NCBI GenBank assembly: GCA_964291265.2
Contig: OZ219747.1
Location: forward strand, 2,432,001 to 2,496,000
DNA: 64,000 bases
Origin: Alphaproteobacteria bacterium
GTDB lineage: Bacteria > Pseudomonadota > Alphaproteobacteria > SP197
Direction of reading: 5' to 3'
Of the stretch, positions 46,823-52,086 are shown in pieces. Position 1 is the first letter of the stretch, and every line of letters begins with the position of its first letter. Below the pieces are notes generated by a model. That model saw only the letters and a list, made by a program, of their open reading frames with translations. It had not been told where the DNA came from and searched no databases. The translations under genes and the position numbers were made by a program.

Positions 46823-47128
46823 GCCGCTTGATGTGTTGAGGTCCGTCCGGAGGATTCTGGTAGGTGACGGCCGGAGCGCCGTCACTGAGCCATCGCTTCA
46901 GTTGAACGGTTCTCGGCATGCCCGTTCGGCCCAAGGTGGGTTCAGCAGACGGGCAGTGTTCCGCACTCCGGATCGTCCTGTGTCGTAACTACCCAGGTAC
47001 CTCGTCAGGTCTGAGTCTGTGTTGACGTTGGGTGCGGTTTTGGTGTCGTCGGTTTGTTGATTCTGCGCGTCTTGACTTACTAGGCCGGTGAGCCTATGAG
47101 TTGCCCTCTGTCATGAGGGGAGCGGCCG

Positions 47129-47798
47129 TTGGGGTACTTCGGATCGAAGGCGACGCCGGGTTTGTGCCAGGCGCTGATTGCGATGATGCCGCCGCACTCT
47201 GTCTACATTGAGAGCCATCTGGGGGGCGGCGCGCTGATGAAGCGCAAGCCTGCGTCTGTGCGCTCGATCGGGATTGACCGTGATGAGCGTGCGCTTGAGG
47301 CCTTTGAGTGCGCTTATCCGGTGGAGTTGGTGCACGGCTGTGCTCACTCCTTCCTGGCTTCGTTCCCGTTTCTGGGTCCGGAGCTGGTCTACAGCGATCC
47401 GCCCTATCTGCACGCGACGCGGCGTTCGTCGCAGCGCTACCGCTTCGAGTACGAGGAGGCGGACCATGTTGCGCTCCTTGAACTGCTCAAGGGCCTGCCC
47501 TGTCAGGTGATGGTCTCGGGCCACCCGTGAAGCGCTCTATGACGATCTTCTGGCGGGCTGGCGCCGGGTGGCGCTGCAGGTGACGACCCAGGCCCAGGTG
47601 CGGACCGAGGTGGTATGGTTCAACTTTGCTCCCGACCGGGTGCACTGGTCGCGCTACGCGGGGCGGAACTTCACCGCCCGCCAGTGCATCAAGCGCAAGG
47701 CGGCCAACTGGGGGCGGCGCTATGAGGCCATGCCGCCGGGGGAACGTCTGGCCGTGCTGGCGGCGATCATGGCCGTCGAGGCCGGGGAGGGTTCGTGA
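47129..47798 (+). pseudogene. Dam/D12-class DNA adenine methyltransferase, interrupted (TGA plus +1 shift at 47528-47531)
   Basis: GYFGSK, YIESHLGGGA, GID, YSDPPY, VMVSGH; the downstream frame continues ALYDDLLAGW...RTEVVWFNF. Confidence 0.8.
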
Positions 47799-49336
47799 CC
47801 GTCTCGCGCTGGCGCGAGGACCTCGCCGCCCATGACGAGGCCTTCGTGGGCCTGCAGGATCTGTTCAGTCCACACTCCTTCGCCGTGACTGCCGTCAAGG
47901 CCCTCCGGGATTGGGGCCAGGGGATGTTGCGCCTGAGCGTGGCGCTGGTCGGGGAGATCGAGGCGCTGGAGCGGGAGAACACCGGCTTGCGCGAACGGAT
48001 TGATGCACTCGAGCGCAGCGCCGCGCTCGACAGCTCCACCAGCTCCAAGCCACCGGCCAGCGACGGTCCGAAGAAGAAGAGCGGAAACCGACAGAAGCGC
48101 ACCCGGAGCCAGCGCGGCAAGTCCGACAGGCCCAGTGGCGGTCAGCGCGGCCACGAGGGAGTCACCCTGAAGCAGGCCGAGAACCCGGACCACGTCGTCG
48201 ATCATGCCCCATCCGCCTGTAAGGGCTGCGGCGCGGCGCTGTCGGATGATGACCGTCACGCAGAACCCGTCTGTCGGCAGGTCTTCGACATGCCCGAGCC
48301 GCAGCCCCTCGAGGTCACCGAACATCGCGCCCATCGCTGTCTCTGCGCCGCCTGCGGCGCCGTGACAACAGCCGCCTTCCCGCACGGCGTGAGCGCCCCG
48401 GTCCAGTACGGGCCGCGCATCACCGCCTGGGTGACCTACCTGTTGCACGCCCAGTTCATTCCCGAGAAGCGCGTCGCCGAGGTCATGAGCGACCTCTCCG
48501 CCGTCAGGATCTCAACCGCCACCATCGCCGCCATGGGCAGGCGCACCGCCCGGCGCTTCGAGAGCTTCCTCGATCATGTCGCAGAGATCATCCGCACCCA
48601 AGCCCCGGTCAAACACCTCGACGAGACCGGTATCCGCATCAACGGCCAGACCCACTGGCTCCATGTGCTGTGCACCCCCTTGCTCACCATCCTGCGCATC
48701 GCCACCGGGCGCAAACACATCGACGAGACACTCAACGGCATCGTCATCCATGACGACTTGGCCACTTACTTCACTCTCGAGGGCGTGCGCCACGGTGCCT
48801 GCAACGCCCATCGCTCGCGCGAACTCCAGGCTCTGATCGAGATCGAGAAGGAAGACTGGGCCACCGCCATGCACAGGCTCCTCACCCGTGCCAACAGAGC
48901 CGCCCGCTTCGCCCGCAAGAACGACCGCGACATCCCCGCTTCACTCCTCGCCCGCATCTCGCAAGCCTGGGACAGGATCCTCGAGCAGGCCATCGCTTCC
49001 CACGAACAGAGGCCGCCGCTCCAGCCCGGAAAGCGCGGACGACGAAAACGCCGCATCGGCCACAACCTCGCGCTTCGCCTTCAGAAGCACAAGGACGGCT
49101 GCCTGCGCTTCCTCACCAACCCGCAAGTCCCGTTCTCCAACAACCAGGCCGAGCAAGACTTCCGCATGAGCAAGCTGCGCCAGAAAATCTCGGGCGGCTT
49201 CCGATCCATGCAGGGCGCATGGGACTTCGCCAAGCTGCGATCCGTCATCTCCATCGCCCGAAAACAGGGCTGGAATGTCCTCGAAACACTGGCCCACCCC
49301 GATCCCATACAGCTGATCCCGAAACTGCGCTTCTGA
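47795..49336 (+). CDS. IS66 family transposase
   Basis: Coiled coil then DSSTSSKPPASD, GGQRGHEG, Zn finger CKGCG...RQVFD...CAACG, HLDETG, HDD, NNQAEQDFR, KISGGFRS. Confidence 0.95.
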   Translation: MTVSRWREDLAAHDEAFVGLQDLFSPHSFAVTAVKALRDWGQGMLRLSVALVGEIEALERENTGLRERIDALERSAALDSSTSSKPPASDGPKKKSGNRQKRTRSQRGKSDRPSGGQRGHEGVTLKQAENPDHVVDHAPSACKGCGAALSDDDRHAEPVCRQVFDMPEPQPLEVTEHRAHRCLCAACGAVTTAAFPHGVSAPVQYGPRITAWVTYLLHAQFIPEKRVAEVMSDLSAVRISTATIAAMGRRTARRFESFLDHVAEIIRTQAPVKHLDETGIRINGQTHWLHVLCTPLLTILRIATGRKHIDETLNGIVIHDDLATYFTLEGVRHGACNAHRSRELQALIEIEKEDWATAMHRLLTRANRAARFARKNDRDIPASLLARISQAWDRILEQAIASHEQRPPLQPGKRGRRKRRIGHNLALRLQKHKDGCLRFLTNPQVPFSNNQAEQDFRMSKLRQKISGGFRSMQGAWDFAKLRSVISIARKQGWNVLETLAHPDPIQLIPKLRF

Positions 49337-49943
49337 CATCCCTCCTCGGCGCCATCAGACCGCAGCCATCAATCCACCTCCCGTCAGGACTCGGCGAAAT
49401 CAGACCTGGGCAGTTACCCTGTGTCTGCCTTGATGCCCGAATCCAGCTGCACTCGACAGGATGTCGGTGGGTCGGGTCGCTCTCAAGACAAGCGATCAGA
49501 GTGCGGCGTTGTTTGTTCGCCCGCCATTGTGCGACGTGCGCACCCGATGCCTTCGCGGAATCGCTCGCCGGGTGCGCACAGTGTGCCGTGGTCTGGACAT
49601 GGCTTTCGAGCGAGCAACTTCCCGATCGTCGGCAGGTGTATCGTCGGGGGCCAGGGCGCGGAACGCAGAGCTGTGGCGTAGCTCATGGAATCACGCATCG
49701 TCCAGGTTCGTGCAGGCCATGACAACGGCTCCGGGAGACCATCCACCAAGCGCGTGCGGCGGCGGAGCCAGTCGCCGTGGGAAGCACCGGAAGCGCGTTC
49801 GATCGCCTCGCACATTGCGCTCGTCTCGGCCTGTCCGGGGCTGGCGCCCTTGTCTGAACTCCTGCTCCTGAGCGTGGTGCGTGGGCAGGCGCAGGGTCTC
49901 GTTCCGGAGTGCAATGTTGCCTGCCGGACCACTGGGCTTGTCT

Positions 49944-50416: not shown

Positions 50417-52086
50417 CTAGCGCCCTGCGATCGGAGCGGTGTCGGGATAGAGCGCCGCCTTGAAGGGCTGCATGCCGACGCGCCGGTATGTTGAGAGAAA
50501 GGCCTCGTCCTCGTTGGACCGGAGGTCGAGGTAGGCATCGATCAACCGCTCCACGGCAGGGATGATGTCGTCTGCCGCGAAGCCAGGGCCGGCGCGTTCA
50601 CCGAGCGCGGTCGTTTCCGTTCCGTCGCCACCGAGAGTGATCTGGTAGTTCTCTGCTCCGGCGCGGTCGAGACCAAGAATGCCGATGTGCCCGACATGGT
50701 GGTGCCCGCAGGCGTTGATGCAGCCGGATATCTTGATCTTGAGATCGCCGATCAGGCGCTCGTCCCCACGCTCCTTCATCCGGGTGGCGATGCCCTGGGC
50801 AATCGGGATGGAGCGGGCGGTAGCGAGGTTGCAGTAGTCCAGCCCGGGGCAGGCAATGATGTCCGATGCCAGCCCGACATTGGCGGTCGCGAGATCCGCC
50901 TTGCGCAGTGCTGCATGAAGCGCCGGCACATCGCGCTTGTGCACGTGGGGCAGAATGCAGTTCTGTTCATGGCTGATCCGGATTTCGTCATGGCCATATC
51001 GCTCCGCCAGGTCGGCGATGACGCGCATCTGTCCTGCGGTGGCATCGCCCGGCGTGGCGCCGTGGGTCTTGAGCGAGATGGTGACGATTGCGTACGCGGG
51101 ATTCCGGTGCGGGCAGAGGTTGGAATCGACGAACGATCGGAAAACCGGGTCGTGCGCAAGCGTCGCGTCGAATGCTCCTGTCGGCGCCTCGATGAATGCC
51201 GGCGCCGCGAACATCGCGCCGATGCGCTTCAAGAGAGCCTGGTGCGTACCGCGGAACGCCTTGCGTTGAATCAGGAAGCGTTGCTCGACACGGTCGCGGA
51301 AGGCCTCGAACCATGCTCGTTGACCGTGATCTTGATGCGCGCCTTGTACTTGTTGTCGCGGCGCCCGATGGTGTTGTAGACCTGCAGGATGGACTCGACG
51401 TAGGGTAGCAGGTCAGCCTCAGGCAGGTAGTCGCGGATGACCGAGCCTATCACCGGGGTGCGCCCGAGCCCGCCGCCCACCACAACCTCGTAGCCGATCT
51501 CATCCGCCTCATTGCGGATCATGCGCAGACCGATGTCATGAGCGCGGGTCACGGCACGGTCGACCGGGGAACCGCTCACTGCGATCTTGAACTTTCTCGG
51601 CAGGAACGCGAATTCCGGGTGATCCGTCGACCATTGCCGGAGCAGTTCGGCGGTCGGGCGGGGGTCGGCGACCTCGTCGGCGGCCGCACCGGCAAAATGG
51701 TCGGCTGTAATGTTGCGCACACAGTTGCCGGACGTCTGGATTGCATGCATCCCGACGTCCGCGAGAGCGTCGAGAATATCCGGCACGTCCTTGAGCCTGG
51801 GCCAGTTGAACTGGACGTTCTGACGCGTCGTGAAGTGTCCGTAGCCCTTGTCCCAACGTTCCGCGACTTGGGCCAGCTGGCGCATCTGCCGACTGTCCAG
51901 CGTTCCGTAAGGAATGGCCACACGAAGCATGTAGGCGTGCAACTGCAGGTAGAGCCCGTTCATCAGTCTGAGGGGCTTGAACTCCTCTTCGGTCAGGGAA
52001 CCTTCAATGCGGCGCTCCACCTGCTGGCGGAACTGCGCGACCCGTCTGCGTACGAATTCCCGGTCGAAGCTGTCGTATCTGTACAC
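50417..52086 (-). pseudogene. cysI: Sulfite/nitrite reductase hemoprotein, split by a 1-nt frameshift near 51310
   Basis: RLMNGLYLQLHAYMLR, HFTTRQN, TSGNCVRN, LPRKFK; second frame ACPGLDYCNLA, SGCINACGHH; span is 1670 nt (not a multiple of 3). Confidence 0.9.

Follow-up and report, generated by a model that had tools for sequence, protein, structure and literature searches.

An insertion sequence (IS) of the IS66 family in an alphaproteobacterial genome carries, ahead of its transposase gene, a cassette made of a predicted promoter, a palindrome and a gene related to upf31 of IncP-1beta plasmids. The cassette is probably a portable autorepressor that limits transposase expression, the intact protein likely being dimeric and binding the palindrome. 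Passenger-carrying ISs, the single-ORF ISBst12 group and Upf31 autorepression are already known. No published description of such a cassette was found in the literature, with ISfinder, REBASE and the IS66 review lying outside this comparison, and the accessible part of the Upf31 report does not mention IS-borne homologues (PMC11997246).

The window, that is, the whole 64,000-nucleotide stretch of contig OZ219747.1 that was analysed, contains the element at positions 46985-49417, flanked by genes for a 2OG-Fe(II) oxygenase and a DUF934 protein (Table 1). The size of 2,433 bp, the terminal inverted repeats matching at 13/14 positions and the perfect 8-bp target duplication, all proposed in the preliminary description, were confirmed at their positions. 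The host genome has five full-length copies, the other four of which match at 96.9-97.9% and have identical start and end bases. The empty-site allele with a single CCTGTGTC, for which a search had been recommended, was recovered in one contig of run X3 that joins 46976 to 49418 with eight ambiguous bases, one CCTGTGTC; the contig has 34 bases on the short side of the joint, and all three runs come from one study. In same-genus genomes, no empty site was found, and the left and right flanks were not conserved together. Because four other copies end at the same bases and an empty site is seen, the boundaries are not due to chance, and the element is a real, multi-copy and mobile member of the IS66 family.

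Table 1. Features of the element and its target site (positions in the window)
Feature	Positions	Strand	Remarks
Left 8-bp target duplication, CCTGTGTC	46977..46984	+	Single copy at the empty site, run X3
Left inverted repeat, GTAACTACCCAGGT	46985..46998	+	Boundary identical in other copies
Predicted sigma-70 promoter: -35 TTGACT (47072-47077), 17 nt, weak -10 TATGAG (47095-47100)	47072..47100	+	Position conserved in family
Predicted operator ACTAG-N10-CTATG over spacer and -10	47079..47098	.	Left arm degenerate in window lineage; family consensus CATAG-N10-CTATG
Predicted leader hairpin CCCTC-TGTCAT-GAGGG	47104..47119	+	Would cover part of the ribosome-binding site; ViennaRNA fold, no shuffle control
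Upf31-family Dam-fold gene without target-recognition domain, broken	47129..47798	+	Stop and one-base frameshift at 47528-47531
IS66-family DDE transposase, 513 aa, uninterrupted	47795..49336	+	GTG start overlaps the original stop of the passenger (GTGA)
Right inverted repeat, minus strand reads GTAACTGCCCAGGT	49404..49417	-	
Right 8-bp target duplication, CCTGTGTC	49418..49425	+	Both duplications identical

Several other features were observed in the element and elsewhere in the genome. GANTC sites at window positions 47013, 47059 and 49388, near both ends and just 5' of the predicted -35, are a possible input for a host methylase. At G000:C2:517829-517960 and 1456114-1456457, short matches to the left and right ends lie close together and resemble MITE-like derivatives, with an internal deletion, of family A, the family of the window element. 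Elsewhere in the window, a sulfite reductase-like gene beside cysG (50417-52086, minus strand) seems to be split into two 271-codon ORFs, possibly by a frameshift, and a Phd/PIN toxin-antitoxin pair with an HTH antitoxin-like gene (40819-42193) lies just past the apparent end of an rRNA operon.

A DDE transposase, GTAA-type terminal inverted repeats and an 8-bp target duplication place the element in IS66. The transposase matches NF033517 at 277 bits (cut-off 180) and PF03050 with an E value of 1e-38, which upholds the earlier assignment. The GTGA overlap with the passenger gene at 47795-47798 was likewise confirmed; the 4-nt overlap recurs in 64 of the 73 GTDB loci with an IS66 transposase. 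No tnpA or tnpB of classical IS66 is present 5' of the transposase in the element, and the passenger is the sole upstream gene. The transposase is related to single-ORF members of the ISBst12 group, which has been described as single-ORF for ISDge4 in the accessible text of PMC12898284 (see also, in part, PMC8024623), and it is nested among passenger-less single-ORF elements with support of 95/90 and 100/100, in a tree without ISBst12 itself. The element departs from the one-ORF plan of this group in having a second gene after the left end, ahead of the transposase. On a Bradyrhizobium plasmid, an element with identical 14-bp ends, an 8-bp duplication and a 50% identical transposase has neither passenger nor palindrome; the passenger gene is therefore an add-on. 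The preliminary description had held that same-ended copies without the methyltransferase would count against its proposal, and this objection applies in part through the Bradyrhizobium element.

The passenger ORF that starts at 47129 meets a stop at 47528-47530 after 133 codons, and its final 88 codons lie in another frame, so that the 5' part keeps motif I and DPPY and the C-terminal helices are out of frame. With a score of 14.6 bits against Pfam D12, the window ORF is below the cut-off of 22. Of the complete DPPY-type Dam/D12 methyltransferase that had been proposed, the DPPY motif thus stands and the complete gene does not. Among nine family A copies examined, five have the same lesion and four an intact codon there; an intact family A protein is encoded at G000:C2:161882-162547, and the passenger is intact in a second carrier family (B) as well. 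Perfect 8- or 9-bp duplications surround 4/5 of the broken copies; the four intact ones comprise one with a 7/8 duplication match, two with none and one without a right end. Only three family A copies have an uninterrupted transposase, and the passenger is broken in all three. The broken allele fits a de-repressed or cheating lineage, of which the copies are few and all kin. An assembly artefact was rejected as the cause of the frameshift since the lesion is common to five dispersed copies; the depth at the lesion in run X1, unaccounted for by the listed alternative alleles, argues indirectly in the same direction. A contig of run X3 has two other letters at window positions 47529-47530 and lacks the one-base deletion, a hint that another out-of-frame allele exists at this spot.

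Between families A and B, identity is 62% for the passenger and only 33% for the transposase. Both ends were found at 10 of the 12 loci examined, and all 10 complete copies have open passenger and transposase frames, nine with perfect 8-bp duplications. An intact passenger does not, therefore, block transposition.

A consensus promoter scan of the element returned no sites, and the promoter was inferred from conservation across the family. The operator set comprised 60 loci dereplicated at 90% from 153, of which 58 were anchored on TTGAC; locus L080, anchored on the wrong box, was excluded from later counts. The consensus, TTGACA-n-CATAG-N10-CTATG-CTG, consists of a -35, 17 bases and a -10, with the palindrome overlying the spacer and the -10. 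TAG is present at 57/58 anchored non-redundant loci and CTA at 53-57/58, and the 10-nt middle is unconserved. Spacing 10 scores at 54/60 loci and other spacings at 0-2, with a matrix built from those same loci. At 9.7 bits, the window operator is the best site in the element (the next scores 0.4) and falls below the 11-bit family threshold; no further operator copy occurs within the element, right end included. The host genome has ten sites of at least 11 bits, three of them variant left ends. At threshold, the palindrome was found in 0/10 passenger-less relatives.

Outside ISs, the promoter of plasmid pB3 reads CAGCATCG-N10-CGATGCTG directly after TTGA, in the same place and with the same spacing as the IS palindrome. 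Among phage homologues, 40 spacing-10 sites lie 5' of 24/36 representatives, at most one site occurs at any other spacing, and four sites are downstream. A palindrome shared by IS, IncP plasmid and phage homologues follows the protein, not the IS. Covariation between protein and operator was also considered: residue 181 follows a single operator base pair, in that the variant G9 or C26 accompanies 17/17 proteins without F181 but only 2/60 with it. It was rejected as evidence, as it is not significant after kinship correction and has only two independent supported pairs.

P2-like prophage homologues (L167-L246, e.g. L170, L176 and L202) have tandem arrays of the same split palindrome upstream, and the genes 3' of them include HicAB, ParE/HTH, Fic, GmrSD and ParM. 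A homologue between rep and portal genes (L275, NC_047817.1) also has a palindrome array. Restriction-site-like hexamers that abut the phage arrays include, in addition to those counted below, CTCGAG, ATCGAT and GGATCC. A word search of the literature for phage operator arrays found nothing.

The intact passenger aligns with Upf31 of pBP136 across its whole length at 44% identity (97/220), with F185 and W198 of Upf31 aligned to F181 and W194, and upf31.0 of IncP-1beta is among its plasmid relatives. Full-length homology, the C-terminal domain and the key aromatics of the Upf31 family are found in the intact copies, and the window copy loses the domain by frameshift; the inverted repeat in the gene's own promoter is likewise present, with a degenerate left arm in the window lineage. 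According to the accessible part of its report, Upf31 represses its own promoter about 50-fold (XylE from 4.76 to 0.09 units), repression is lost in Y180A, F185A and W198A and likewise in a truncated allele, and the proposed operator consists of CAGCATCG repeats (PMC11997246).

Relatives of the intact protein number 2,747 at E<=1e-10 among 3,801 candidates. An IS66 transposase follows the gene at 73/76 GTDB, 65/80 metagenome and 0/80 viral loci, each scan covering the best 80 of more than 450 matches. Sixteen genomes in four phyla supply the 76 GTDB loci, one genome accounting for 34 of these, and six of the 15 metagenome loci without an IS66 partner have fewer than 100 bases downstream. Other partners are IS701-like (DDE_5) or DDE_Tnp_1-type transposases, two of them joined by 4-base overlaps. 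A blind scan for inverted repeats and duplications around non-IS66 partners gave nothing clear at 6/6 loci; one of these partners (L079) was later bounded via other copies, and here the cassette lies within an IS701-like element that has ends of its own and, in 4/5 copies, 5-bp duplications. Four other loci (L100, L108, L137 and L153) are unbounded and could be nested insertions. L074 was rejected as a non-IS66 partner, being an IS21-like insertion into an IS66 copy. What comes after the cassette at L123 and L155 is a weak DruA-like ORF and an ORF for an IS66 leucine zipper.

The preliminary description had placed the gene in the accessory slot of tnpA and tnpB. This does not hold, because a 3,631-bp IS66 element of genome G005 (G005:C1:1068849-1072479; L283:850-4480) has the cassette before a classical TnpC together with tnpB, which is located at the right end and read from the other strand, and because the cassette also precedes non-IS66 transposases; the passenger as a tnpA/tnpB substitute was accordingly rejected. 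The same genome has 11 equal-scoring passenger matches, and two copies (L284 and L285) have swapped flanks, the left of one matching the right of the other, which suggests recombination between copies.

When 114 transposases were dereplicated to 41 for a tree, a single clade of the passenger-bearing ones was rejected (p-AU 0.0002; LG+G4, with long branches present). IS-borne passengers form one group of 63 rows (SH-aLRT 99, in a quick tree of 103 passengers) in which partner types are intermixed. Since the carriers are not one clade but their passengers are, the cassette has been exchanged between transposases. Pairwise dN/dS values of 0.08-0.21 for the passenger (15 pairs), as compared to 0.08-0.35 for transposases, point to purifying selection on the passenger as strong as that on the transposase.

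By analogy with Upf31, the intact IS-borne protein would bind the palindrome as a dimer. Passenger and transposase would be read from one coupled transcript, which the bound repressor would lower; a newly arrived element would express transposase in a pulse until repressor accumulates and stay low thereafter. The product of the window copy would be no more than the N-terminal 133 residues, which would not repress, and this copy would have to rely on intact ones at other genomic sites. The presence of the cassette before unrelated transposases, including that of a bounded IS701-like element, fits control at the DNA level rather than contact with one transposase. The earlier idea that the gene modulates its own transposition survives in part: the dN/dS values indicate more than cargo and the gene probably bears on transposition, but it is broken in the window copy. 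Against an autorepressor, the invariant DPPY is unneeded by a pure repressor, the window operator is degenerate and its -10 weak, and intact cassettes do not stop multiplication, as seen in the 10 family B copies and in the single genome that supplies 34/76 GTDB loci. Further, cheaters can exploit a trans-acting repressor, and an explanation of why it is conserved in the long term would have to invoke entry into new hosts.

The preliminary description had proposed a mobile orphan DNA adenine methyltransferase, which would act genome-wide on a short or relaxed motif and protect against restriction or change the host methylome. Automatic names ('DNA adenine methylase') agree with this, as does the predicted structure of the intact protein (pLDDT 80), in which a Rossmann core is followed by two C-terminal helices and which matches many methyltransferases, Dam among them (TM 0.51-0.56). 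The SAM-binding motif I and DPPY (motif IV) stand in the alpha order of Dam and the D12 class, and a PDB sequence search returned only DpnM (E 0.0015) and two repeat-protein matches, the latter regarded as spurious. However, the distance from motif I to DPPY is 64 residues in intact copy L001 compared with 150 in E. coli Dam, where the residues between them are presumably the target-recognition domain, and the passenger lacks this domain. The window family is below the cut-offs of PF02086 and TIGR00571, and family B reaches 34.6 bits with PF02086 across only 42 residues. Dam controls IS10 and IS50; such Dam/GATC control of the element ends was rejected here, as no GATC occurs in the inverted repeats or promoter. 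The co-travelling palindrome is also left unexplained by a genome-wide enzyme, and, in the accessible part of its report, the homologue Upf31 gave no GATC methylation by DpnI/MboI and no SMRT signal when expressed from a vector in a methylase-free strain (PMC11997246). A Dam-like orphan methylase is thus very unlikely. The least probable reading is that the cassette has been captured only for its promoter and translational coupling, with the protein as neutral cargo. The spread of the broken allele, seen in the perfect duplications around its copies, and the transposition of sister elements without a cassette would fit this, but selection at the amino-acid level is as strong as on the transposase and the left arm of the palindrome is conserved though it lies within the promoter spacer.

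An operator-tethered methylase or methylation reader is somewhat better placed, although we consider it unlikely. Here, a C-terminal dimer would stand in for the absent recognition domain by docking on the palindrome, and bases next to the half-sites would be methylated, or flipped out and read, by the two catalytic domains; the promoter would act as an epigenetic switch that is reset when the DNA replicates or enters a new host, and all of this is compatible with repression. The SAM-binding motif and DPPY are invariant (DPPY in 120/120 closest homologues and 79/80 phage loci), and a rare 16-bp split site could escape SMRT motif calling of the kind used for Upf31. In phages, 50/80 half-sites have a palindromic hexamer at most 10 nt outside them (shuffled mean 7.9, maximum 17 of 1000), including CTGCAG (15), TGGCCA (11) and GGTACC (11), and 41 GATC occur in the IS leaders, where about 7 would be expected. 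However, kin inflate both the hexamer and the GATC counts, some hexamers are simply the junction of two adjoining operators, and hexamers are not in excess at IS operators (7 and 9 of 57, the shuffle level). No half-site adenine is constant across the IS, IncP and phage variants, and the negative DpnI/MboI and SMRT results for Upf31 weigh against this reading as well. In its broadest form, it would mean that ISs of several families captured a phage or plasmid methylase without recognition domain, which its C-terminal dimer re-aimed at a split operator to write or read adjacent methyl marks, a scenario that we entertain only tentatively. If true, transposition would have a built-in epigenetic switch that opens the transposase after replication or on arrival in a differently methylated host, and the restriction-site-like hexamers abutting operators in P2-like prophages would be read-out sites.

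The autorepressor reading points to a widespread, swappable module for the control of transposition; its homologues, counted above, are everywhere called 'DNA adenine methylase'. The Upf31 protein gains a precise candidate operator that insertion sequences, plasmids and phages have in common, which makes the question of Upf31 methylation directly testable. In addition, the host genome is a natural experiment, as one element is present in both intact and frameshifted forms and another has a variant operator.

Compared with known systems, the element resembles the ISBst12 group, with ISGst1 and ISGka4 as named members, in its zinc-finger transposase, GTAAC... ends, 8-bp duplication and lack of tnpA/tnpB; it differs from its 1.55-kb Bradyrhizobium sister in being about 900 bp longer due to the cassette, and hence in having two ORFs. 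Methyltransferase and regulator passengers occur in ISs, as in IS220 and ISNha5, respectively. As in transporter ISs (tIS), an extra gene lies between the left end and the transposase within one pair of ends (definition in PMC9330008; IS231 passengers in PMC2266710, both in part). Unlike in these, the passenger brings a promoter and palindrome, its reading frame meets that of the transposase in a common junction, and it is found again in other IS families; it therefore looks like part of a control circuit rather than freight. Dam and DpnM of the D12 class share the motif order, DPPY and fold, whereas in the passenger the stretch from motif I to DPPY is shorter by about 86 residues, extra C-terminal helices are present, and there is no GATC in the ends or promoter of its element. 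Among restriction-modification methyltransferases that regulate themselves, M.SsoII binds and M.CfrBI methylates its own promoter. The passenger is predicted to be, similarly, a methyltransferase-fold protein that regulates its own promoter; in contrast, no restriction enzyme is present, the regulated partner is a transposase, and methylation by the passenger is putative. The closest counterpart is Upf31 of the IncP-1beta plasmids pBP136, pB3 and R751, which has the same short Dam-like core with C-terminal helices and the same split palindrome with a 10-nt middle, starting within the TTGACA box. The IS gene differs in lying within an insertion sequence, 5' of a transposase and with no KorB partner on the element, and in having one operator with the half-site CATAG in place of clusters with CATCG.
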